Positions 6,552 through 60,998 of a DNA stretch of 64,000 bases are shown one piece after another (within the stretch, counting starts at the first letter, position 1; each line of letters begins with the position of its first letter). The translations under genes were made by a program, and so were the position numbers. The notes beneath the pieces were generated by a model that was not told the DNA's origin, ran no database searches, and saw only the letters and a program-made list of their open reading frames with translations. The DNA comes from a phage. The stretch is taken from assembly GCA_033286805.1 (NCBI GenBank), contig GCA_033286805.1_4727.1. One strand, written 5' to 3'.

Positions 6552-7571
6552 TTACACCGCCACCTTAGCCTTGATAGCGGGGTGTGATTGATATCCGACG
6601 AACACAAAGTCTTCGTAACGGTAATCCGTAATACTTTCCGGTTTACGTACGATTGTTAGCTTCGGTAATGGGTACGGCTCACGGCTGAGCTGCTCTTTAA
6701 CCTGTTCGAAGTGGTTATGATAGATGTGGCAATCTCCACCCGTCCACACGAACTCACCAACGTCCATATTCAGCTGTTGGGCAAGCATATGCGTCAGCAA
6801 CGAATATGAGGCGATGTTGAACGGTGTTCCGAGCAACACGTCCTGTGATCTGGCTAACAGCATACAAGACAAGGCACGTGTTGGTACGTTATGCGCATTC
6901 AACCAAAGTTCCGTTTCACTATGTCGTACATCATCCGTAACCCACTGGGTTCTTAATACGTCGTTGCGTTGAACATAATCAACGCGTTCATCGACTGTGA
7001 GTTCGTGGGTATAGAACTGATAGAAACTGTGGCATGCTGGAAGCGCCATATCGTCTAAATCGCCTACGTTCCACGCGCTAACGATGATCCGTCGAGAATC
7101 AGGATCTTCTTTAAGCTGACGCATCACGTTTGCGATTTGGTCGTGGTGTTTAACATACAAGAGATGTTTGACCATACCGGCGTCAACAACACCGCAATAC
7201 TCATAGCCGCGTTGCATCAACTCACGAGTACGTTCTGTATCGTGCGGGACAACCATTTTGTAGTCGATCCATTCCCGCCATTGTTTGCCGTAAATAGGTC
7301 CTAGATTCCCTTCTTCGTCAGCCCACTCATTCCAGATGCGAACACCGTTATCCTGAAGATAAGCAACGTTTGTATCACCATTAAGAAACCAGAGCAGTTC
7401 GTGGATAACGCTCTTAAGGTGAATCTTCTTGGTGGTTACCAGCGGGAATCCTTTCTTCAAGTCAAAACGCATCTGACGTCCGAATACGGAACGGGTCCCG
7501 GTGCCTGTACGATCAGCTTTATCACGACCATTATCCATGATGTCTTGCAAAAGGTCCAAATACTGTTTCAT
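6552..7571 (-). CDS. thyA: thymidylate synthase (ThyA) with two internal insertions
   Basis: MKQYLDLLQ...DRTGTGT...FPLVTTKK...[20 protein letters not shown], catalytic-Cys region PACHSF all align to bacterial ThyA; GAGGA SD before ATG. Confidence 0.9.
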
Positions 7572-22860: not shown

Positions 22861-25491
22861 TTACAATTCAAAATCTTCATCGATAACACGCTGGGTAAGC
22901 ACTTTGTCGCTGAAGAACTCCACCTTGCGCTGATGGTATTTACGGTGCGCTTCGATAGAAGTACATACCAGATACCAGAACGTTGGCGTCATTCCTTCAA
23001 ACTTCCCTTTCAGCTGACGCAGTCGTCCCAACACCTGAATGTTGCCGGTTCGTGACCCCATCGCTAACGTCATGAACGTCATCACCAAGTCAGGAAGGTC
23101 GATACCGGTACCTGCCGATTTCACGGTTGTAACGCTAATATCGTTATCCAGCAAGACCATGAAATCTTCTTCAGCAGTATAAGGACCGATCTCTAGCTCA
23201 GGAATACGTTCACTGAGATAATGCGACAACGACTTACACATATCAACGGTTGCACAATACACCAGCATCTTCATACCTTCCTGATACTGGTTCATAAAAC
23301 CTTTGATAATAACGGTATAGATGAAGTTAAAGTACGCGAGTTTGAGTTGCTTGTTCTTCATGATAGACTGTTCAAATATCGTGTGCGAATAAGCTCCACC
23401 AAACCCTTTGTATCTGACTTTATCTGTACTGCGTAGTCGATATGTTACCGCATTTACCGCAATGTATTTCTTGTATTCGCCTTTCGCATAACGGGCTTCT
23501 TTCGGATACATCAAATACAGCATCTGTTCGATAAACGGATCATCGGATACCGCTGTTGCCGACAGATAAATGATTTCCGGAATATTGGCGTAACACTTGA
23601 CCTTAAACAAGAAATGCAATGCTTCGTGACACTCGTCATGAATCAGCAAACCTATGCCGGTCTTTTCCCAAAACTCAGCGGGATGGAAGGCATATGGCGC
23701 AACGCAGTTATTCTTCTCGTAGTCCGCAATATAACGTTGGAACATGTTCAAGGAGAACAATGCGATTTTGAAGTCGAGTTCACCCTGTTCAACCAAGGTT
23801 TGAAACTCCAGCATGCTGTAACGAGGAATGTCGGGATGCGGTGGATCCTCCTTAGCGTTCCCGCGTATCTCGATAACATCCCCTGGTTCCATCCCGAAGA
23901 AGTTCAGCAGCGAGCTTCGCCAACCTGGCATATACCGTGGAGAAAGTATAATGCCTGTGCGCACACCCCGTCTAAACACGATTTCCTGCGACATCGCGGT
24001 GTTGTGTGTGACGATAAAGTCTTTCACCACAAACAACGCTGAAGGATCATCGATCGTAATGCAACGTGCATCCGCAACACGGGAAGGTTTGATTGACAGT
24101 ACACGCAGCATACTTTCGAAGTATTGTCCGTCGACAGGACAACGTTCCAGCTTCTTCGGAAGTGTAACGATTTCATGTGGACGTTTATACCGTATCGTAA
24201 CCATGTACGCCAATCGTCCCTTATGTCTTTCCCCCTTGTAGGTGTAATACGGTTGTTTAATACGTAGACGAGCATATCCACCGATCGAACGAACCAAGTA
24301 GATAACGTCATCTGAAAGCTGTTTGCTCGAAGTACAGAAAACAATAGATCCGCCTTTATCTACCGTTCCGTCGGTATCGATAAGACCTGCAAGTATTTCG
24401 CAACGCTGTCTATGCGACGCCATCATGTACTGTTTCGGAACAAACTTCTCCCAGGCTCGTTTACCCATCAACCCCAACTGATCAAGCGCGGATGCTGTCT
24501 CCGACCGCCCACCGTAATTGATTAACGTTGCGGCAGGCGTCTTCGTTACCGCATAGTCGTATTTGTCACGGTACTGTATTTCACAGTCATCAGGAAGACG
24601 ACTTAACACCTTATTCAAGATGAAATCGTCAGGAGTTGTAATGATTGGAGATGTCGTTAAATGACCGTCCCCTAACAGAACACCAAGCACGTACGGATCA
24701 AGCGGTAAATCTGCATCAGGAGTATCCTCAGACTCACAATACGGAATGTAAAGTCGTTTATTGGACAGCTCCAGGATACGAATCATCTCAAGTGTATTGA
24801 TAACCCGCATGGGATAAGGATTGTTTTTGTCCCATCCCCAGTTAGGTCTCATGCACGCCCAGAGATGCTCGCCGCAGGCTTCAACACGACGACCGTCAGC
24901 AAAGACAATCTCATAGAGCTGTTTTGCTTTATGGTCGAAGATATTGGTTACCTTCGTTGGTCGGCCATTAGCAGCCGTGATGGTATCACCTAGCTTCAAA
25001 TCGCCTAATTGACGCCATCCGCCAGGGACTTTTACGAGCGTGGTAAGCGGATTCGCTTTACCAGACCCCGTTTGAGCGGTGTTTAGGCTCATTCTGAAGG
25101 GGGTATCCTTACCCCCGTTCATGTACTCCAGCCATTCTTGTTGATCTTCACGCCACGGAAACTTCCATTTCTTTACGAACTCCACTTCCTTACCTGGTAC
25201 CGGATCGTGATAAACGATTTCCAACCACTCTTTTCGGATTCCTCGAGAGAAGATAAAATCCAAAAACGATTTCAACTGTTCGCGGAGTAAGTATACCTCG
25301 CTATAATCGCTTCTCGCTGCGGCGTAGGTGTTAATGGTATCGGTGACCATTCTCCGTGTACGAGGGTCGCGTCGTTTCCGTAGATGCAAACAACGGTCTC
25401 GAAGGTAATGGCCAATCAAATGGGCAAATCGAAGTCCGTATCCGCTCAGCCTCATGCCATGCGAGAAGACGTCGATACGAGCTAACTTCAT
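22861..25491 (-). CDS. DExH-box SF2 helicase precursor containing an intein
   Basis: Walker A split as TGSGK|...|TAM; after the insertion: DExH LLIHDECHEA, VKSAGTGIDLPDL, motif VI LGRLRQ; ATGA overlap with upstream gene. Confidence 0.75.
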   Translation of the reverse strand: MKLARIDVFSHGMRLSGYGLRFAHLIGHYLRDRCLHLRKRRDPRTRRMVTDTINTYAAARSDYSEVYLLREQLKSFLDFIFSRGIRKEWLEIVYHDPVPGKEVEFVKKWKFPWREDQQEWLEYMNGGKDTPFRMSLNTAQTGSGKANPLTTLVKVPGGWRQLGDLKLGDTITAANGRPTKVTNIFDHKAKQLYEIVFADGRRVEACGEHLWACMRPNWGWDKNNPYPMRVINTLEMIRILELSNKRLYIPYCESEDTPDADLPLDPYVLGVLLGDGHLTTSPIITTPDDFILNKVLSRLPDDCEIQYRDKYDYAVTKTPAATLINYGGRSETASALDQLGLMGKRAWEKFVPKQYMMASHRQRCEILAGLIDTDGTVDKGGSIVFCTSSKQLSDDVIYLVRSIGGYARLRIKQPYYTYKGERHKGRLAYMVTIRYKRPHEIVTLPKKLERCPVDGQYFESMLRVLSIKPSRVADARCITIDDPSALFVVKDFIVTHNTAMSQEIVFRRGVRTGIILSPRYMPGWRSSLLNFFGMEPGDVIEIRGNAKEDPPHPDIPRYSMLEFQTLVEQGELDFKIALFSLNMFQRYIADYEKNNCVAPYAFHPAEFWEKTGIGLLIHDECHEALHFLFKVKCYANIPEIIYLSATAVSDDPFIEQMLYLMYPKEARYAKGEYKKYIAVNAVTYRLRSTDKVRYKGFGGAYSHTIFEQSIMKNKQLKLAYFNFIYTVIIKGFMNQYQEGMKMLVYCATVDMCKSLSHYLSERIPELEIGPYTAEEDFMVLLDNDISVTTVKSAGTGIDLPDLVMTFMTLAMGSRTGNIQVLGRLRQLKGKFEGMTPTFWYLVCTSIEAHRKYHQRKVEFFSDKVLTQRVIDEDFEL
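24001..25056 (-). mobile_element. intein (352 aa) with LAGLIDADG homing-endonuclease domain, Ala-1 / WCT-type (class 3-like)
   Basis: Begins ANPLTTLVKV after GSGK, ends FIVTHN before T; LLGDGHL and ILAGLIDTDG motifs; block B GEHLW, block F Cys (RCITIDD), Thr before HN. Confidence 0.65.
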
Positions 25492-27494
25492 AACGTGATT
25501 ACATCCTCCGGTTTAGGTTCTTTACGCGGTAAAAGCATGTAGTCGATCGGATGATCCGGCTTCATGGTTGGGATATAACTGTTCGGGTTTTGGAACGCAT
25601 CCAGTTGCTCTTGGTGAGCGAACTTCATACTCAAGGAGCGCATGTTCATGTTCTTCTTGAAGGTACTGAAGTATCGTGTTGTTCCCTGTTTCGGCATGCG
25701 ATAATCTTTCGTGTGTGGCGAACGAATCATGCTGGCGTAGAGAATAACGTCGAGATGCGAAAGGTTCATTCGCAGACGCTGGGCACACAGGCGATGCCAA
25801 TAATACAGCACGTTTGCAACTTCTTCCGGTGTTGCTTCGTCTTCCGAGAGGAATCCGGCACTGAAAGAACCTTTCCCGAATTTGAACTCACGTTCGATTT
25901 CTTTTGCGTATTCCATCATGTTTTTGTGGATTAACGGCATCTGGAATAACGTACGTGAATTGTCCCAATGTTTCAAGTCGAAAATCACAATCCCGTCAGA
26001 CGTCACTTCCCAGCTATGGCGTTTAAGATAACGGATAAACGCTTTACTCGGGACGACGGGACGTCCACAGAAATCGAAATTGACTTTGAGCTTACGATAG
26101 CTTTCATCTTTCCTGTCGTAAATCTCCATATCACAAAGCGTCATGTTAAACAGACGTTGCGGTATCAGCGAACTGATTTCTTCCGCTTCGGCTACATCGT
26201 ACAACATGTTCGCAAGACCTAACTTCATCTTAATCAGCACGTGTTTACCTTTCAGCTCACGTGCGAGTTTGATGTCGTTCATGTTCTGGCTGTAGCGAAG
26301 GATATGTTGATATTCCGGCGGGATTGGTGCTGTGGATACCGTTGACGAACCATCGTGGTGTTTGGTGGAAAGAATGTTCTGCGTTACCTGTTGCGAACAG
26401 GTACGCGCTGCGCCATCGCCAACATTATCGGTTAGTGCGAAGTTATGACTTAATTCACCATAACACGTTGTACATACCCCAGCAGGATCGGGATGATGAC
26501 AATAGTTAACGGAGCGCATGCGTACCGTCGTGCCGATCAATTCTTTCATGTGTGGTTGTATAGCTACCAACGAACCGTCATCACGAATAATGAATCGACC
26601 ATGGAAGCCACGCAGGTCGGTCTCATCGCGGATTGGCATCGGGATGGTCTCTTTACTACCACAATCACCAGGATGAAGTCGTTGTACAACCGCTGTCGCT
26701 ATCTGAAGTTCACGACCGAAATATTCAGACTTTTTAATCTGCTCTTTGTTGAACAGCAACGATTTCGCCGCAGAACGACTTTCTTTCAAGCTGTCGGGAA
26801 GAGAGATCAAACCAGCTGCGTATGACCGCATTACTGGATCACGGAATATCTCGGAGTTAATATCAGTCAAGAATCCACGCATCCCAATACACTGTAGCAC
26901 CTGCCCAATCGAAACGTGTTCGGTTCTTACCGCACGTGCAATAGGGTTTGCATGTAACGTTTTATCGGTGCTCAGTACCTTCGTCAGTTTCTTGTATGCG
27001 CTTTCGATACCTTCGCGGGTGGGTTCCGCTTCAGCGATGATTTTCTTAACTTCAGGGTGTACAGTAATCTGATAAAAATCATCCGCACAAATAGTTGTTA
27101 CGTATTCCTCCAACGCATACGTAAAGAAGTTATACACATTGTTAAACATATCGAACAATGCTTTCCAGAGAACCTCGCGATTCTCTTGTGGGTAAGCATA
27201 CATACATTGACGATACGCTGCGCTTTGCAACGCAACCGACGAACCAGCAGTAAACTTGCGTTTATCGACCAGGTTCTCTTTTGTCAACGGTGTCTCAGGA
27301 TACATGCGATGCACAGACCAATGCATGTAACTAAAGAAAATGCGTCGCGCACGTAATTCATGAACGCCATCGTCCATCTCGATATATACACGGTCATTAG
27401 GCTGTGCCCATTCGAACACCTCATCAACCGGCCAGTGCATAAGCTCGCGTGCCCTCACACGACGTTTCGTGGTGGTCGTCTGTGTTGTATTCAT
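25488..27494 (-). CDS. multisubunit RNA polymerase beta-prime subunit, C-terminal fragment
   Basis: IGMRGFL (cf. bacterial AGMRGLM) and YCHHPDPAGVCTTCYGELS (cf. SCDTDFGVCAHCYGRDL) in correct order. Confidence 0.65.
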   Translation of the reverse strand: MNTTQTTTTKRRVRARELMHWPVDEVFEWAQPNDRVYIEMDDGVHELRARRIFFSYMHWSVHRMYPETPLTKENLVDKRKFTAGSSVALQSAAYRQCMYAYPQENREVLWKALFDMFNNVYNFFTYALEEYVTTICADDFYQITVHPEVKKIIAEAEPTREGIESAYKKLTKVLSTDKTLHANPIARAVRTEHVSIGQVLQCIGMRGFLTDINSEIFRDPVMRSYAAGLISLPDSLKESRSAAKSLLFNKEQIKKSEYFGRELQIATAVVQRLHPGDCGSKETIPMPIRDETDLRGFHGRFIIRDDGSLVAIQPHMKELIGTTVRMRSVNYCHHPDPAGVCTTCYGELSHNFALTDNVGDGAARTCSQQVTQNILSTKHHDGSSTVSTAPIPPEYQHILRYSQNMNDIKLARELKGKHVLIKMKLGLANMLYDVAEAEEISSLIPQRLFNMTLCDMEIYDRKDESYRKLKVNFDFCGRPVVPSKAFIRYLKRHSWEVTSDGIVIFDLKHWDNSRTLFQMPLIHKNMMEYAKEIEREFKFGKGSFSAGFLSEDEATPEEVANVLYYWHRLCAQRLRMNLSHLDVILYASMIRSPHTKDYRMPKQGTTRYFSTFKKNMNMRSLSMKFAHQEQLDAFQNPNSYIPTMKPDHPIDYMLLPRKEPKPEDVITL

Positions 27495-28239: not shown

Positions 28240-28269
28240 CCCTCCCACCTCCACATGGGAGAGGGAGGG
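28240..28269 (-). terminator. hairpin after 28283-28645
   Basis: CCCTCCC...GGGAGGG imperfect stem followed by T-rich tract on minus strand. Confidence 0.45.
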
Positions 28270-28282
28270 TTATTCGTGTTTA

Positions 28283-28645
28283 TTATTCTACGCTGTCTTC
28301 TTCCGTATCTTCCTCTTCGGAACCATCGAATGTTTTCATTGTGACGGTGGTATCCCAGTTAGCCGCGTAATCAGCCATCGCTTCACGCAGCGCTTCTTCA
28401 CCAGCATCACCAGCCAGGTCAAGTACAACCAAACCCTGTGCGACGTTTTGAGCAACGGTATCAATAACGGTTGCATCTTCTTCAAAACTACGTACGGGTT
28501 CAATGGTACCTACATCAACAGCGTAGTTCGTGGTTGCTGTAAACACGGCGACTTGTAGCGCATTGCTATCTTCATCATGCAGTGCTGCTTCAATACCGAT
28601 CGGACGAGCCAGTTCTTGTAGTGTTAATTTGCGAATTAAGTTCAT
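28283..28645 (-). CDS. hypothetical acidic protein
   Basis: 120-aa ORF, acidic C-terminus. Confidence 0.45.
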   Translation of the reverse strand: MNLIRKLTLQELARPIGIEAALHDEDSNALQVAVFTATTNYAVDVGTIEPVRSFEEDATVIDTVAQNVAQGLVVLDLAGDAGEEALREAMADYAANWDTTVTMKTFDGSEEEDTEEDSVE

Positions 28646-28677
28646 TATGTTTTCCTCAGGTGAATGTTAGCAATCGT

Positions 28678-29103
28678 TTAAAACTTTAAAACTTTTTCGA
28701 TACGATGGTTGACGAGTTCATTGAACGACTCTTCAGCTTGTTCGATGATTTCATCAACGTCGATATCTAATTGTTGGGGTTGGATAACATGCTCTTTCAT
28801 GGTTTCCAGCCAGTATTCGGCTTTAATCATGACGTTAGCGACGTGTTCGACCTGGCTGCGTATGTCGACGATCTGGCAGTCAGGATTGTTAATATCGATG
28901 ATGTGTCCGTGGTGGTTGATAAAACCTAGCTTATTTGATGCCCTTACCGCATCGCGGGTAAGTTCTTGCAAGATTAAATTATTAACGTAGTTCACTGCTA
29001 CGGAACGATTTTCGTTATCACTCATACCAGGGATCCTCTTTAAGTCATCACATTCTAGTGTTAAGCAGTTAAAATAAACCGTTCCTTTTATCAGCATAAA
29101 CAT
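28678..29103 (-). CDS. hypothetical protein
   Basis: 141-aa ORF. Confidence 0.45.
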   Translation of the reverse strand: MFMLIKGTVYFNCLTLECDDLKRIPGMSDNENRSVAVNYVNNLILQELTRDAVRASNKLGFINHHGHIIDINNPDCQIVDIRSQVEHVANVMIKAEYWLETMKEHVIQPQQLDIDVDEIIEQAEESFNELVNHRIEKVLKF

Positions 29104-43816: not shown

Positions 43817-44173
43817 CAATATCTTCAATACGAATCGCTACTTCGTATCCGCAGCATTACCTGCAGCTCCTGGTGTTACCAGGATGTTGAGAGTATATCA
43901 TGTCCATATTCCAAATGGAACGTAGGACTTCCGCGCTGGATCTCGCTTGAGACCGCTTACTCGTTGAACGTTCTCCTAAACGGAGCTTCGCTGCTGATTG
44001 GACATTGTTACGTACGGTAGGCGTCCCATTAAAGGGATTTTCATTGAAGCCGCGTACATCCGTTACCTTGTTTCTACCTTATCGGTTCCTCTTACGAGGC
44101 GTAACGGCTTTAGCCTATTCCAGCAATTCACGGAATGCATATTCTCCTTTTCAGGAGATAAGGCCATGGCTCT
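43817..44173 (-). ncRNA. intervening sequence 2 (putative self-splicing intron, group I-like; boundaries approximate)
   Basis: Paralog of IVS1: shared 3' end ...CCTGGTAACACCAGGAGCTGCAGGTAATGCTGCGG...GAAGATA..G and hairpins with compensatory changes; ends in G. Confidence 0.4.
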
Positions 44174-44191
44174 GGCATCACCGTCAAAGTC
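44174..44191 (-). CDS. RNA polymerase beta-prime proposed micro-exon 2 encoding DFDGD(A)
   Basis: Minus-strand GAC TTT GAC GGT GAT GCC; in-frame TGA three codons upstream so it cannot be reached by read-through from exon 1. Confidence 0.45.
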
Positions 44192-44541
44192 CACGTATCT
44201 TCAGTATGGTTCGCTACTCCATACCCGCAGCATTACCTGCAGCTCCTGGTGTTACCAGGACGGAGAGATCATCTCATCACCCACGAAGGGTGTTCCGCGC
44301 TACCCTCAGCGAATTCGAGGGACATGATCGTTGAACCTTCCACCGATAATCGGCGGCTAGGCTGCTGATTGAACATTGTACGTTGGGGTGGCATCCTGGT
44401 GCAGGACTGTCGTTGAAGCCTCCCAACATCCACTCACTTATTTCCGCCTTATCGGCTCCCACAAGGGCAGAGTGGCTTTAGCCCGTCTCAGCAATTCACG
44501 GAATTCAAGCTCTTCCTTTCGGAAGGCAGGGCCTCATTTGA
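44192..44541 (-). ncRNA. intervening sequence 1 (putative self-splicing intron, group I-like)
   Basis: 350 nt between ...GYNA codon (ends in U) and DFDGD codons; ends in G; multiple hairpins conserved by covariation with IVS2. Confidence 0.45.
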
Positions 44542-45792
44542 AGCGTTGTATCCCTTAAGGATCATCACGCTTAACCCGATGGTGTTATCCTGCGGATCGC
44601 GTTTAACCTTGGTGATTTCAAGACATTGGTTACTGCTTCGGTCAAGTGATGGGTTTCGAACAAAGCCGCACACAATCCCATCGAACGGTGTATCAGCAAT
44701 AAGCTCATCGTGCAGCTCGCTCATCATCGGATGATAATTACGGACATGTTCCGCAACGAACGCACGTGCCGCTCTTGGCGAATAACCACGATGGAATAAC
44801 TTGGATTGGATATGTTCTTTATTGGTTAAAGTAAATGGTGCGTATGGGAAATGCAGATGATAATAACGATGGTTCGCTGTTATCGAACTGATTACAGTAC
44901 GCGTGGTGAATGGATGTAATGTACCTAATATGTTTTTACGTGTGATACCTTTCTTCTTACCGATGAACTCATCGAAAATTGCTGCGTGGTATTGCAGTAG
45001 CTTCAGTTGTACTTTCGCCATCCAGTTTTCTTTCTTTCTGGCGCTCAAAGGTGTTGTTGGGTGATAGATACTATTCAACGTACCGATAGCATCGATCGCA
45101 CCTTCCATTTTGCTATCTGCATAACGACCGGTCGGCGTATTTTCGATAACGAACATCATGGCCGCAGGAAAGCTGATATACTGACTGAAGAACTTATCAC
45201 GATGGATACGGATGAATTCTCGTAGCGTGTCAACTTTCTCCGTGTTCTTCGGTCCACGTAACGTGGGTCCTTTATACAAGATCTCCATGATACGATCGAA
45301 GTTCTGTATAAAGCTATTTACGCCACGTCGTATCCCGAATGCATCAAATTGCTGCTCTAGATAGTTCTTGAGTTCAATGGGTCGTTTTACATTTGGACGG
45401 TAACTGGCATCAATGAGCCACGTCATCGTTTCAAAGCTTTTGATATTCAACTCGCTTGCCAGCACGAGATGGACCAACGGGTTAATGAACGCATCGATTC
45501 CTTCAGGGACACGCGCCCAGACCGTCGAACGAATCTCTTGTTCTGCTGGGTAGGTTACAACCGTTTTACAGTTTGGACACACCGTGCCGAGTAGCTCACC
45601 ACGATTGTAGAAACCACAACCACATTGTGGTGTGATATCCAACGTATCGCTGGAGTAAACACGGGTGATAAAACTGTTTAATTTCTTCTTCTCTTCGACG
45701 ACTTTTGTATCGTAATCATTCAACAAAATCGGCGTAAAAGGAAGTTCTGCGAGCTGTCTATCGAAACTCACGATATCGAGCATGATGGCCAT
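44542..45792 (-). CDS. RNA polymerase beta-prime N-terminal fragment, exon 1
   Basis: Zinc-binding CGCGFYNRGELLGTVCPNCKTVV (cf. [23 protein letters not shown]), GKKKGITRKNILG...TRTVISS (cf. [23 protein letters not shown]), ends ...VMILKGYNA; AGGAG SD. Confidence 0.65.
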
Positions 45793-45884: not shown

Positions 45885-47780
45885 TTAGAACAGGTTGAAT
45901 GCCCCACCCATGTTGTTAACGCCAACATTCGGACGATCGCTACGTGCGTAGATGTTACCGGAGATGTTACCCAGACCACGAGCACGTGCTGCCATGTTAC
46001 CACGAACGGCGGTACCTGCCAGATGCTGGATGTTCTCAGGACGGATGGTGAAGCCAGCATCAGCCGCAGCTTCGATCAGCGCCTGCAGTGCTAACGGATC
46101 GAAGTCGTAACGCATTGCCCAGCCGGTTTGTTCCCAGCTACCAGACAGAACACGATCGATGATTTCGTGACGAGCGACAACACGCTGAGACATCGTCATA
46201 TCGGTACGGTCGAAGCTGTCTTCCCAAGCTTCTACGGTATCCGGGTTAGTGATGTTCATCATGTACAGATCGTCCATATCACGAATATCGTGACGGTGAC
46301 CATCCTGGTGGTTGTAGTAACCCAGCGGGATACGGTTACCGGTAGCGTAGACCAGCGGTTGGCCGTATTGATATTTCTTGCTGAAGCAACCCAGGGTAGT
46401 ATCATCGAAGGCACGGTAGAGTGCTTTGTAACCTTCGGAGATTTCCCGGACTTCACCTTCAACTTTGCCCGTAAAGATCTTCTCAGCCGCCGGGATCATA
46501 CGCAGCAGCCAGCTATACTCGCCTTCTTCTGGTACGTCGATAGAAATCAGCAGAGACGGATACAGAACCTGTTGCAGGAACTTGTAAATCTGCTCGTTGG
46601 TTTGCGTAGACAGATCCAGCGGTGCAGTCACTTCAGGATCCAGCACCATCGCCAGAGCACCTGGGTTATGCGGACCAATACCACGAGCCGCGTTGCTGAT
46701 TAAAGACTGTGCCCATGCCATGCCGCTGTTCAGCGTAGCGATGGTACCAATCAGACCCAGCACGAAGCTGTTCGGTGTGAACGCATCCAGCTCCAGCGGG
46801 TAAACGCTGGTCATCACGTAACGCGGCTGGTATTGTACAGTCGGCGGTACCGGATAGCCGTTAACCAGAACAGGGCCTTGGTTGAAGGTCGGGTTCTGCG
46901 GGCTGTAGGTCAGGTCAATGTAACCGGTGGTGGCGACCAGACGCTGTTGACTATCGTAATCGCTCATCGCTTGACGGATGCGGTTAGAGATAGTTACAGT
47001 GATGTCAGAACGCACAGGGTTACCAACAATATCGCTGTCCTGCATACCGCTGGTGTTGTACTGAACGCTGCTGATTGGCTGATCGCTTGCCATCATGCCC
47101 AGGTTGAACTGCGGCAGACCCAGTTTATCACCGAGACGGATTTCGATCGCGGTTTGGATTGCGTTATCTGCAGCAGACAGCAGGGTGGTTGCCAGATGCG
47201 CAGATTCAGCGGTGATTTCATTGGTCACCACAGCCAGACCAGCGATACGAACAGTACCGTTAGACTTACCGCCAATAGCTGAATACATTGCCGCCATGAC
47301 TTCGTTGATGAACGTACCGTTCAGGTTATCAACCCAGGTACGCGGTACCAGAATGTTACCATGCGGACCTTGTTCTTCACGACGCGGCAGCGGAGCCAGA
47401 CCAGCAACCAGCGGCAGGACGTAACCGAAGAAGTGGTTATGATCACCAACTTTTGCACCGCTCATAACAACCAGGGTCGGATACGGTACGCTGTACTGGT
47501 TCGGGTCAACCGCAACAAAGATGAAGTCGTCTTTGAACTGGGTATCTTCCAGATATTTCTCCATCAGACGACGGAGATTCAGTACCTGCTCGGAGCCGGT
47601 ATTACGGCTGATACGACGGCTCAGTGTACGGTTGATCGTACGCATCGTATGAGTTACTTTAGGACGGTCGGCAAAATCTGCAGCGGTTTCCAGCGCCTCA
47701 TCAGCACGTTGTGCGGTGCGGGTTTCAGCTGCACGAATTTCTACATTATCGTTACCGTTATTACGTACGTCTAAGCCCAT
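45885..47780 (-). CDS. candidate chimallin (phage nucleus shell protein ChmA) or other major early protein
   Basis: 631 aa; early-promoter-like motif upstream; about 11 genes from PhuZ, matching my recollection of Goslar layout; no sequence-level confirmation possible here. Confidence 0.4.
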   Translation of the reverse strand: MGLDVRNNGNDNVEIRAAETRTAQRADEALETAADFADRPKVTHTMRTINRTLSRRISRNTGSEQVLNLRRLMEKYLEDTQFKDDFIFVAVDPNQYSVPYPTLVVMSGAKVGDHNHFFGYVLPLVAGLAPLPRREEQGPHGNILVPRTWVDNLNGTFINEVMAAMYSAIGGKSNGTVRIAGLAVVTNEITAESAHLATTLLSAADNAIQTAIEIRLGDKLGLPQFNLGMMASDQPISSVQYNTSGMQDSDIVGNPVRSDITVTISNRIRQAMSDYDSQQRLVATTGYIDLTYSPQNPTFNQGPVLVNGYPVPPTVQYQPRYVMTSVYPLELDAFTPNSFVLGLIGTIATLNSGMAWAQSLISNAARGIGPHNPGALAMVLDPEVTAPLDLSTQTNEQIYKFLQQVLYPSLLISIDVPEEGEYSWLLRMIPAAEKIFTGKVEGEVREISEGYKALYRAFDDTTLGCFSKKYQYGQPLVYATGNRIPLGYYNHQDGHRHDIRDMDDLYMMNITNPDTVEAWEDSFDRTDMTMSQRVVARHEIIDRVLSGSWEQTGWAMRYDFDPLALQALIEAAADAGFTIRPENIQHLAGTAVRGNMAARARGLGNISGNIYARSDRPNVGVNNMGGAFNLF

Positions 47781-58850: not shown

Positions 58851-59675
58851 TTAACTGTCGCTTTCTGACGTATCGACGTAGTTGAAAATACGATCCCGCA
58901 AACACTCATAACGAGGCAACGCACTAAGAATGATCATCTTCAACTGCATCGCGATCGATACACGTTCTTCATCCGACGCATCGTCTCCCCATTTACCTGG
59001 CTTAACCTGAATAGGTTCGTGCGGATCCTGCGGGAATATAAAACTTAACAACAGATAATCCGTACGGAACTCCCATACTTCTCGACCGTTGTTATCGGTT
59101 TCTTTACGCAACGTGAAGAGTTGGCGTTCGGTGGTTGGATCCAGCATCAGCGGTCGGCCACGAACAATCTCCAGTTTACGTGGGCTGACGAACGTCGTAC
59201 GTTCAGGAAGGTATTTTTCAACATCATCCGTATCCAACAAGAACAAAATGATGTCGTCGAAATACTTCGGTGCGTACGTGTGTATCGGTTCGCCGTCGCT
59301 ATACGAAGAGATCTCTTGAAGTATTGGTGTCTTACACGAAAAGTTCTGGCACGAACCACGGGTGATCGGTAAGGTGGTCCATTGATGTTCTGTAGACAAT
59401 TCAACAGGCACCAACGGATAATCATCGATGAAGACCACGCACGTTGTGCTAATGGGTATTCTTCCATCATTACCTGGTTCAAAAACCAAACGTATCTTAC
59501 CAGTAATCAGCGCCATCTCATCTGGCATTAAATGGCTTGCTGAACGAGCAAGTCTGAAACCGGCCGCCTGTTTATAAGGTTCGGGTTTATAGCCACGGAC
59601 AATAAGAGAGACATCCGCAAGTTCAACGCTCACGAACGCATCTTTGGTGTCTTCATTGTTCGTCGTTAACGTCAT
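58851..59675 (-). CDS. hypothetical protein
   Basis: 274-aa ORF. Confidence 0.5.
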   Translation of the reverse strand: MTLTTNNEDTKDAFVSVELADVSLIVRGYKPEPYKQAAGFRLARSASHLMPDEMALITGKIRLVFEPGNDGRIPISTTCVVFIDDYPLVPVELSTEHQWTTLPITRGSCQNFSCKTPILQEISSYSDGEPIHTYAPKYFDDIILFLLDTDDVEKYLPERTTFVSPRKLEIVRGRPLMLDPTTERQLFTLRKETDNNGREVWEFRTDYLLLSFIFPQDPHEPIQVKPGKWGDDASDEERVSIAMQLKMIILSALPRYECLRDRIFNYVDTSESDS

Positions 59676-60690
59676 TGCTCATTTTCTCCACTGCAACAAA
59701 TCGTTCAAGCTCGCGTAATAAACGCTCTTTTAACGCAGGATCAACTTCCGGAGCATGTTTATCACGATACCATTCGGTCCCGTTGTATTGCAGGCTAACA
59801 TGCCATGTTCCTAACGGGCTTTCCTCTGCAGCGGCGATGAAATTCTTAACGCCGGTTTTGGTAGGATACTCCATGATAGGAACAGCCTGCTTCAGATCCA
59901 TTACGGTAAGATCCTGGAAGTTGTAGTCCAGGAGCGTTAATGCACGTTTGTCGCGTAGCAGTAACCCGCAATCCAAGATGGTGAAATCAATACCCCAGAA
60001 ACGTAACTTACCTCCAACCCCAACAGGAGTGTGACCACGATAAACCGCGAGATAAATCTCACCTTTATCGGTTTCTTTGTTGTATCCAGCAATGAAAGCG
60101 GCTGTGATTAATGGTTGGTGTCCTTTCGCTAAGAAGACAGGGTGGTTATGATACAACCAGTCACTACGAATCAGATCGGTAACCTGACCTAAACGTGCTG
60201 TTGGTACCATCACCGATCCCAGAGTTTCATCAACAGGAACCTGGTAATATTCAAACAGAACACCATCGATTTCTTCGGTAGCGTAAGGGGTACGTGCTGG
60301 ATCGTTAAGGAGTTTACGGAGTTTTGTGTCGATTTCGTTAACACGGCTACCCTGTTCTTTCTCGCGACTACCGATCACAAAAGCAACAAGATTGCGTACG
60401 CTAACAAAAACATCATCTTTCTCGGTGTCGCTGAGATCAGCTTCATCAGGCATTGTTGTCCAATGTAACGGGCCTTCAACAACCTTAAGCCATCTATCTT
60501 CACGTCCCGGATAAACAAAAGGCTTATGCACAGGAACACTGGTATGCTGAACCCGTAATAACAGGCTACATAACGGTGGTAATGTTTTCTCTAGAGGAGG
60601 AACAATACCTGATGTAACAGCGATGACGTGACGGTTAAGAACAAGAGAAGCTGAATAGGTGATGTTATCTAATCCTGGTAATTGATCCAT
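59653..60690 (-). CDS. hypothetical protein
   Basis: 345-aa ORF; AAGGA SD; AT-rich region upstream. Confidence 0.55.
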   Translation of the reverse strand: MDQLPGLDNITYSASLVLNRHVIAVTSGIVPPLEKTLPPLCSLLLRVQHTSVPVHKPFVYPGREDRWLKVVEGPLHWTTMPDEADLSDTEKDDVFVSVRNLVAFVIGSREKEQGSRVNEIDTKLRKLLNDPARTPYATEEIDGVLFEYYQVPVDETLGSVMVPTARLGQVTDLIRSDWLYHNHPVFLAKGHQPLITAAFIAGYNKETDKGEIYLAVYRGHTPVGVGGKLRFWGIDFTILDCGLLLRDKRALTLLDYNFQDLTVMDLKQAVPIMEYPTKTGVKNFIAAAEESPLGTWHVSLQYNGTEWYRDKHAPEVDPALKERLLRELERFVAVEKMSNDVNDEQ

Positions 60691-60998
60691 GATAGGAATC
60701 CTTAGTATGTTTGATATGTTGTTTAATTGACATATTAAGTTTAAAAGAGGTTATGTTTTACGTATGGTTAATAAAGTATTCTTATCTCTATTAAGTTATA
60801 TTCTATCTAAAGATAGTAAACAGATATAATGCTCCCCACCTCCCCATTCTCCCAAGTAATACTGGCCTACCGGCCCTCTCCTTTTTAAGGGAGAGAGTAA
60901 GCATTCAGTATTGCTCAAATGAATAAGCAAAACAGTATAAACTTACCGTCTCGAGTCGTCTCGAGACGGCGTAGTAGTATCTGTTTATCTCTTTTATG

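Follow-up and report, generated by a model that had tools for sequence, protein, structure and literature searches.

The 64,000-nucleotide stretch of phage DNA analyzed here, referred to below as the window (NCBI GenBank assembly GCA_033286805.1, contig GCA_033286805.1_4727.1), belongs to a Goslar-like, nucleus-forming jumbo phage of E. coli. It is collinear with positions 125083-189116 of the Goslar genome at 96-97% identity, with two structural differences. One of these is an insert of 352 amino acid residues in a DNA helicase. It is very probably an intein of class 3 that contains a LAGLIDADG endonuclease; it would be spliced out of the helicase precursor and would home by means of this enzyme. 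The helicase gene is the minus-strand open reading frame (ORF) 22861-25491 in the ORF list of the window and codes for a precursor of 876 residues. Its main parts are as follows.

22861-25491, minus strand: helicase precursor gene, 876 amino acids and stop codon (ORF list; syntenic orthologue of Goslar gp164, 'DNA helicase'; PHROG 16)
25057-25491, minus strand: N-extein, 145 amino acids, ending TGSGK with Lys at position -1 (alignment with the intein-free Goslar allele)
24001-25056, minus strand: intein, 352 amino acids, with a LAGLIDADG endonuclease domain lodged within the HINT splicing domain (corresponds exactly to the gap in Goslar gp164; class 3 matches in the PDB; AlphaFold2 (AF2) model; Foldseek)
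22861-24000, minus strand: C-extein, 379 amino acids and stop codon, beginning TAMSQ, with motif II DECH at 23626-23637 and the C-terminal lobe of the helicase (aligned with the proteins of Goslar and of Erwinia phage Rebecca; weak Helicase_C and XPB-type matches)

The gene shares 4 nucleotides with the stop of the upstream RNA polymerase beta-subunit gene (25488-27494), and Goslar gp164 is also located downstream of a gene for this subunit. In the precursor, residues 141-145 are TGSGK, residues 146-497 are the insert (ANPLTT...FIVTHN, 352 residues) and the chain then continues as TAMSQ. The segment 24001-25056 of the minus strand is an in-frame insert between the invariant Lys and the Thr of the Walker A motif. 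Alignment with Goslar gp164 (524 residues) gives a single clean gap of 352 residues at GSGK/TAMSQ, the Goslar protein being without exactly residues 146-497, and the GSGKT P-loop is restored once these residues are removed. The Goslar DNA at the insertion site reads ...ACGGGGTCTGGTAAA/ACAGCCATGTCGCAGGAG... An initial annotation of the window, made from the sequence alone, had placed an insert in Walker A at 24001-25056, the strand unstated, between TGSGK and TAMSQ, and had expected its excision to restore the P-loop; the alignment confirms these points exactly. The boundary of the intein cannot slide because the intein-free Goslar allele fixes it, and a shifted end with a hidden nucleophile at position 1 was rejected on this ground. 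A plus-strand reading of 24001-25056 was also rejected, the frames being full of stops.

The host protein had been described as a DExH helicase, and this description holds: motif II is found in the context HDECHE, with DECH at residues 619-622. Walker A, motif II and the C-terminal lobe are all recognized, and by its sequence the protein may be assigned to the superfamily 2 (SF2) helicases of DExH type (XPB/SSL2-like). The intein-free form matches the DNA helicase family PHROG 16 with an E value of 6.4e-26 and the NCBIfam XPB model with 6e-6. Its matches to the Pfam families ResIII, DEAD and Helicase_C are weak and sub-threshold. The exteins are 98% identical in amino acid sequence to Goslar gp164 despite 10% nucleotide divergence (125 synonymous and 13 non-synonymous codon differences). 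Because of this the helicase is clearly under selection, and restoration of the P-loop is therefore required. An insert of 352 residues within GSGK/T is incompatible with ATP binding.

Splicing and endonuclease domains of the insert

The conserved blocks and motifs of the intein, in intein numbering, are located as follows.

25018-25056, minus strand: block A, first residue Ala (GCG), no N-terminal nucleophile (sequence)
24853-24894, minus strand: block B (...VEACGEHLWAC), with Cys61 at B:7, His64 at B:10 and Trp66 at B:12 (HMMER alignment to 6rix/6bs8, HLW on HQW)
24157-24744, minus strand: LAGLIDADG homing endonuclease domain, about residues 105-300 (Pfam, Foldseek, homologue conservation)
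24661-24696, minus strand: LAGLIDADG motif 1, PYVLGVLLGDGH (sequence)
24361-24399, minus strand: LAGLIDADG motif 2, EILAGLIDTDGTV (sequence)
24025-24072, minus strand: block F (DARCITIDDPSALFVV), with Cys332 at F:4 (codon TGC, 24061-24063) as predicted initiating nucleophile (aligned to RCVEVDNP of 6rix/6bs8)
23998-24021, minus strand: block G (DFIVTHN) and Thr+1, with Thr350 at G:5, His351 at G:6 and Asn352 at G:7 (homologue alignment)

The intein was aligned with 54 homologues, giving 55 sequences, of which 47 could be scored at position 1 and 46 at position -1. His64, Cys332, Thr350 and Asn352 are invariant in all 55. Trp66 is found in 50 and replaced by Phe in the other five, while His351 is present in 53. 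Position 1 is Ala in 35 of the 47 scorable sequences, typically in the form AQPL, and position -1 is Lys in 43 of 46. The residue at +1, Thr498 of the precursor in the present case, is Thr in 44 of the aligned relatives, Ser in nine and Cys in one. Three weak homologue matches (P0072, P0075 and P0077) have Gly at F:4.

Class 3 inteins are defined by the lack of a nucleophile at position 1, Trp at B:12, Cys at F:4, Thr at G:5 and usually Ser or Thr at +1 (PMC5222942, PMC5050341, PMC3196547, PMC7664689). The intein agrees with this published definition at every position (Ala1, Trp66, Cys332, Thr350 and Thr+1). It also has the general features of inteins, namely the HINT fold, blocks A, B, F and G, His at B:10, the C-terminal His-Asn and Thr+1. 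The initial annotation had taken Ala1, GEHLW, RCITIDD and THN before Thr as signs of class 3. All four are present. The signature Trp, Cys and Thr positions, His B:10 and Asn G:7 vary little or not at all among the 55 sequences, and the pattern does not arise by chance.

A phmmer search of all PDB sequences gave as best matches MchDnaB1 from Mycobacterium chimaera (6rix and 6riy, E 3.5e-9 and 1e-8) and Msm DnaBi1 from M. smegmatis (6bs8, E 1.8e-7). Both belong to class 3, and the class 1 intein gp41-1 ranks next. In these alignments EHLW falls on HQW, RCITIDDP on RCVEVDNP and VTHN on PTHN. By this proxy, and from the class 3 signature in the high-scoring homologues, the intein may be a member of the monophyletic class 3 clade (Tori & Perler 2011). 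Like MchDnaB1 and Msm DnaBi1, the intein has an N-terminus of the Ala type, His at B:10, Trp at B:12, Cys at F:4 and a Thr-His-Asn end. For the mycobacterial DnaB class 3 inteins, experiments have established that splicing proceeds by way of Cys F:4 (PMC5222942, PMC7664689). However, those two proteins are mini-inteins without an endonuclease and reside in bacterial DnaB, not at the Walker A Lys/Thr position of a phage SF2 helicase.

The intein also differs from both in having Cys at B:7. The B:7 position, which is the Thr of the class 1 TxxH motif, is occupied by Cys61 here and by Cys in 28 of the 55 aligned sequences. The preceding position, B:6, is Cys in 34 of the 55 and Ala in the present intein (residues 60-61, window about 24874-24879). 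A redox-sensitive disulfide is reportedly formed by the catalytic Cys of Msm DnaBi1. Cys61 could lie near Cys332, and a redox-sensitive disulfide between them is a candidate idea.

The AF2 model of the intein, calculated on the homologue alignment, has a mean predicted local distance difference test (pLDDT) score of 95.3 and a predicted template modelling (pTM) score of 0.93. A Foldseek comparison of the model with the PDB gave PI-SceI, TliVMA and PI-PfuI as top matches, with E values from 7e-18 to 5e-12 and template modelling (TM) scores up to 0.75. These proteins have the same two-domain architecture of HINT and LAGLIDADG. Unlike the intein here, they have Cys1, follow the class 1 route without the Trp-Cys-Thr (WCT) triplet, show 12-17% identity and come from archaeal or yeast hosts. 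The splicing half of the model superimposes on 6rix and 6bs8 with a root-mean-square deviation of 1.2-1.4 Å over 69 residues at 30-34% identity (1.3 Å for 6rix by Foldseek). The endonuclease half matches the fold of I-DmoI and also that of PI-SceI.

The endonuclease domain was recognized at the start from the motifs LLGDGHL and ILAGLIDTDG, and the profiles agree. Both Pfam models score above their cutoffs, LAGLIDADG_3 with 30.3 bits (cutoff 22.5) and Hom_end with 22.9 bits (cutoff 21.1). Both motifs are intact with their acidic residues, Asp130 in LLGDG and Asp229 in LIDTDG, and Lys204 is present. In the homologue alignment Gly125, Asp130, Gly131, Gly224 and Gly230 are invariant, and Asp227, Asp229 and Lys204 are at least 90% conserved. 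The excised intein is predicted to be a monomeric two-motif LAGLIDADG endonuclease, and by its sequence it would be active at the present day.

Distribution of the intein and the tract beside it

A second natural copy of the intein was found by a scan of JGI/ENA metagenomes. The metagenomic contig (ERZ1664509 NODE-51, L008 below) is derived from a second Goslar-like phage and matches the window at 94.8% identity along 5.1 kb. Its intein has identical junctions and 98% amino acid identity. The two copies differ by 52 nucleotides and eight residues, in 41 synonymous and eight non-synonymous codons. The ratio of non-synonymous to synonymous substitution rates (dN/dS) is 0.05 for the whole intein; taken singly, the endonuclease domain has 0.056 and the splicing domain 0.042. 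Both domains are under purifying selection, and the intein is apparently functional and mobile. The Logan contig SRR24668568 shows no difference from the window and adds no independent evidence.

The DNA next to the C-terminal junction of the intein is distinctive.

23536-24000, minus strand: divergent tract of about 465 bp next to the C-terminal junction of the intein, extein codons 146-300, with 75-83% identity to Goslar; putative co-conversion scar (identity to Goslar; proportion of synonymous differences, pS)

Over 314 bins of 200 bp the identity to Goslar has a median of 97.5% and is lower than 88% in only nine. The two bins adjoining the intein on the C-extein side have 77.0% and 78.5%. 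In extein codons 146-300 pS is 0.84, which is saturated, and the proportion of non-synonymous differences (pN) is 0.03; in the rest of the gene pS is 0.17-0.24. The divergence of the tract is given as raw pS, the Jukes-Cantor-corrected dS being undefined at saturated synonymous sites. The two intein-carrying alleles, of the window and of L008, agree with each other in the tract, with 95-97% identity over 23561-23860 and 87% in the 150 bp beside the junction. Both are 75-85% identical to Goslar there, while elsewhere in the compared stretch all three alleles are mostly 90-100% identical. The tract goes together with the intein and starts at its junction, which is the pattern expected of co-conversion during homing. 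From these comparisons the tract looks like a co-conversion scar left by homing from a much more distant donor. The presence of the intein varies between close relatives, since it is found in the window and L008 and not in Goslar, and in Rebecca and not in the nearly identical phage RAY. The window and L008 share the tract.

Among 50,697 phage records, megablast of the gene gave Escherichia phage vB_EcoM_Goslar only, by its exteins, over 60% of the gene in two pieces. Megablast and blastn of the same records gave these Goslar exteins only and no near-identical intein, and no sampled phage is closer to the tract than Goslar. An exact scan of IMG/VR with the junction 24-mer and the peptide pattern gave no match, a search of a collection of 5.8 billion proteins gave nothing above 42% identity to the intein, and tblastn gave no further copy inside the 64-kb window.

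Distant relatives are numerous. In a tblastn search the intein matches 872 phage records, all at 44% identity or less, about 300 of them from Mycobacterium phages. The whole precursor is covered to at least 80% in 28 records, in which the same helicase carries an intein at the same site. These carriers include Erwinia phage Rebecca, Proteus phage 10, Xanthomonas phages RTH11 and LucasX, Serratia phage 2050HW, the Pseudomonas EL group and others. The site is also occupied in Salmonella phage SA002. Among the same-site helicase records examined, none annotates the insert as an intein. A further group of about 50 relatives from the protein collection is located at GxGK/T P-loops of other ATPases (PhoH, ClpX, helicases, terminases and RecA/DnaB-like proteins), and nearly all relatives from this collection bear the pattern AQPL...W...C...THN/T.

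Among the chimallivirus copies, that of Rebecca gp251 ('putative RAD2/SF2 helicase') was the one compared in a residue-level alignment. It has the insertion GKGK/ATTL...VTHN/TFCG, Ala1, EHLW, QCITVD and a LAGLIDADG domain, in 345 residues. As with the other chimallivirus helicase inteins, the gene adjoins that of the beta subunit of the non-virion RNA polymerase (nvRNAP), and the intein occurs sporadically among near-identical phages. The same-site chimallivirus inteins differ from the present one in that they have 38-44% amino acid identity to it, about the divergence of the exteins. The intein is the first copy seen in the Goslar lineage, of which the reference phage Goslar is without it. 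A full-text literature search found no open-access description of an intein in a chimallivirus or phiKZ-like helicase or in Goslar.

Several of these relatives deserve separate mention. Within Agricanvirus ray, Rebecca (L002, 2057-4639) has the intein of 345 residues and RAY (L012, 1030-2577) does not. The empty allele of RAY has Ser (GKGKS) where Rebecca has Thr+1 (GKGK/intein/T), and the flanks differ by 0-5 nucleotides per 150 bp. Other siblings of Rebecca (Ea35-70, Simmy50 and others) match the C-extein only. In Salmonella phage SA002 (MN445183; L003, 2058-4648) the helicase with the intein is entered as two separate genes, 'RAD2/SF2 helicase 1' and '2'. Its frame breaks at the P-loop and start of the intein (...LQTGKEKPNH and a stop), possibly by a sequencing frameshift or in a decaying allele, and for this break SA002 was left out of the homologue alignment. 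In the Pseudomonas EL group (for example NC_007623, 45428-50164) the precursor matches in three pieces over about 4.7 kb and the intein matches in four places, which suggests that the EL helicase may carry more than one intein.

The mycobacteriophage class 3 inteins (MP-Catera gp206, the cluster C1 helicase and TerL1) are known from helicases and terminases (Kelley et al. 2016; Tori & Perler 2011; Gosselin et al. 2025 preprint). By description they resemble the present intein in the class 3 signature, the in-frame LAGLIDADG domain, the length of about 350 residues and the P-loop NTPase hosts. They occur in actinobacteriophages, whereas the present phage is a nucleus-forming jumbo phage of a Gram-negative host, and they interrupt a different extein family. 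The Lys/Thr position of Walker A has been called a 'classic' P-loop intein site (Kelley et al., PMC5050341), and phage helicases are already known to carry class 3 inteins of about 350 residues with LAGLIDADG domains (bioRxiv 10.1101/2025.01.02.630785). As an intein, the present one adds little to what is already well documented for this type, this P-loop site and phage helicase and terminase hosts, and the same helicase site is already occupied, without annotation, in many public jumbo-phage genomes.

It is important to note the effect on gene names. The intein alone matches the PHROG families 'terminase large subunit' (phrog_36964, E 5.7e-37), 'DNA primase' and 'DnaC-like helicase loader'. 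In public records the intein-bearing helicases are labelled terminase, RNA polymerase beta subunit, DarB-like antirestriction protein or DOD-type homing endonuclease. The intein sequence contaminates family profiles and spreads wrong names, so that the mislabelling of intein-bearing genes as terminase, RNA polymerase or DarB-like is a general annotation problem.

Proposed mechanism and its alternatives

The precursor of 876 residues would be translated with a broken P-loop and be inactive. Because position 1 is Ala, splicing would start at the internal Cys332 (F:4), which would attack the Lys145-Ala146 bond (precursor numbering) with the aid of His64 (B:10), Trp66 (B:12) and Thr350 (G:5). The arrangement of the F:4 Cys with His, Thr and Trp is modelled on MchDnaB1 (PMC7664689). 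The attack would yield a branched intermediate with a block F thioester, from which the N-extein would be transferred to the hydroxyl of Thr+1 to form the block G branch. Cyclization of Asn352 with the help of His351 would then free the intein, and an O-to-N acyl shift would give a helicase of 524 residues with an intact GSGKT. In a co-infection the freed endonuclease of 352 residues would cleave helicase alleles that have no intein, for example Goslar gp164, at the site of insertion. During repair the intein would be copied into the cut allele together with part of the adjacent extein DNA.

Wherever sequence and the modelled fold can bear on it, they support the reading of the insert as an intein of class 3 that contains a LAGLIDADG endonuclease. 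Several points weigh against the scheme as a whole. The splicing of this intein, like that of any chimallivirus helicase intein, is a step that we infer from sequence. Thr at +1 is a weaker nucleophile than Cys. The Goslar target predicted for the endonuclease differs from the spliced junction of the present phage at two synonymous positions within 6 nucleotides downstream. With three alleles only, the event behind the tract could be a gain of the intein in the carrier lineage or its loss or replacement in Goslar. The Pfam model Intein_splicing (PF14890) gives only 14.8 bits against a gathering cutoff of 35.8, and the NCBIfam intein-containing models match only in part. The WCT motif is necessary and not sufficient, because grafting it onto a class 1 intein does not alone yield class 3 splicing (PMC7664689).

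The profile result has a bearing on the initial annotation, which proposed profile matching as a check and the lack of a Hint-domain match as a refutation. The check came out well for the LAGLIDADG profiles and failed for PF14890, so that the refuting observation was technically made. PF14890 appears to be a poor fit to this clade of inteins, and the low score is taken as a limit of the profile, given how well the insert agrees with solved inteins in sequence and in fold. This agreement outweighs the failure of one profile.

Another reading is that the intein splices and that its endonuclease is inactive on the available targets, which would make it a vertically inherited passenger past its mobile phase. 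Cleavage by the endonuclease is so far a prediction, and the searches of phage, IMG/VR and protein collections yielded no close donor. The divergence of the intein DNA between the two carriers (93-97% identity) is about that of the genome background, and for this reason the intein was not acquired very recently by either. However, both LAGLIDADG motifs, their acidic residues and Lys204 are intact, dN/dS is as low in this domain (0.056) as in the splicing domain, the presence or absence of the intein is accompanied by a recombination tract anchored at the junction, and the distribution inside Agricanvirus ray is sporadic. A passenger of this kind seems rather unlikely.

Much less probable is a route similar to that of class 2, in which Thr+1 attacks the N-terminal junction directly and Cys332 has only a structural or regulatory role. 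Ala1 also occurs in class 2 inteins, and Tori and Perler noted that, as long as Cys F:4 has not been mutated, either route is in principle available to an intein bearing the class 3 signature (PMC5222942). Yet Cys F:4 is invariant in all 55 aligned sequences, the closest solved relatives are class 3 inteins, and splicing of Msm DnaB-1, the same intein as 6bs8, strictly needs this Cys (PMC5222942). Direct attack on an amide by a Thr hydroxyl would lack precedent. Class 2 inteins, which have Ala1, direct attack by Cys+1 and no WCT triplet, are known solely from KlbA proteins (PMC3196547). Membership of this type was rejected, since the insert has Ala1 in common with them but possesses the triplet, carries Thr at +1 and interrupts a helicase.

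The least credible reading is that of a dead intein or a tolerated domain insertion, in which the mature form would be the full-length protein of 876 residues and the helicase would be inactive or work without a canonical P-loop. The sub-threshold Pfam HINT profile would fit it, but the intein as a whole has a dN/dS of 0.05, the exteins keep 98% protein identity to those of Goslar in spite of their nucleotide divergence and the saturated synonymous sites of the 465-bp tract, and the insert would abolish ATP binding at GSGK/T. One decayed class 3 intein is on record, Arsp-FB24 Arth_1007 (PMC3196547); this pseudogene is without Cys F:4 and His B:10, whereas the present intein keeps all catalytic residues. 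A live class 3 intein with a homing endonuclease is the reading retained below.

The phage nucleus and further differences from Goslar

The gene for the chimallin shell is present in the window at 45885-47780. In Goslar-type phages the DNA is replicated inside the chimallin 'phage nucleus' and translation takes place outside the shell. The homing enzyme must cross the shell because it is translated outside and the phage DNA is inside. One tentative idea, which we hold to be doubtful, is that the intein enters the nucleus within the helicase precursor by the import signal of the helicase and splices inside, or that it has evolved an import signal of its own, and that it then acts as a weapon that cuts the essential helicase gene of intein-free relatives, such as Goslar, in a co-infection. 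A parallel is the use of an intron-encoded nuclease in the competition of PhiPA3 with phiKZ (reviewed in PMC13282480). If true, this would affect competition and speciation among nucleus-forming phages. The carrier is about 96% identical to Goslar, the laboratory model for the E. coli phage nucleus, which is without the intein, and the two form a natural matched pair. This makes homing, and the access of a cytoplasmic endonuclease to nucleus-enclosed DNA, testable by co-infection.

The second structural difference from Goslar, which is also a second mobile-element polymorphism between the two phages, is an intron swap in the nvRNAP beta' gene (ORF 44488-45792, minus strand, ending ...ILKGYNA). 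In the window this gene contains two tandem elements similar to group I introns, at 44245-44552 and 43869-44189. The Rfam model RF00028 spans each of them in full length at sub-threshold scores of 26.4 and 28 bits. The exons reach up to 45792 and down to about 43592, with approximate splice sites. A micro-exon between the introns encodes DFDGD of the catalytic motif NADFDGD, and the gene resumes as ...LMNNHIVPD, which in Goslar is annotated as a separate hypothetical gene, gp185. The peptide joined from exons 1, 2 and 3 aligns unbroken to the intron-free PhiPA3 gp054 across NADFDGD. At the upstream intron position Goslar (NC_048170, 168194-169660; L007, 11194-12660) has a different group I intron of 377 nucleotides (46.9 bits), followed by the HNH endonuclease gene gp186. 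The window has neither of these and carries at this position (44166-44542) an endonuclease-free element of 377 bp, about 71% identical to the neighbouring intron. The 109 bp beside the swap are unusually divergent from Goslar (84% identity).

The most divergent patch of the window relative to Goslar is at 59943-60743, with 68-82% identity over about 800 bp (median 97.5%). It lies inside ORF 59653-60690 on the minus strand, a homologue of the hypothetical Goslar gp228, and has no insertion or deletion and no obvious mobile element. Smaller dips in identity are found at 6801-7000 and 28257-29056.

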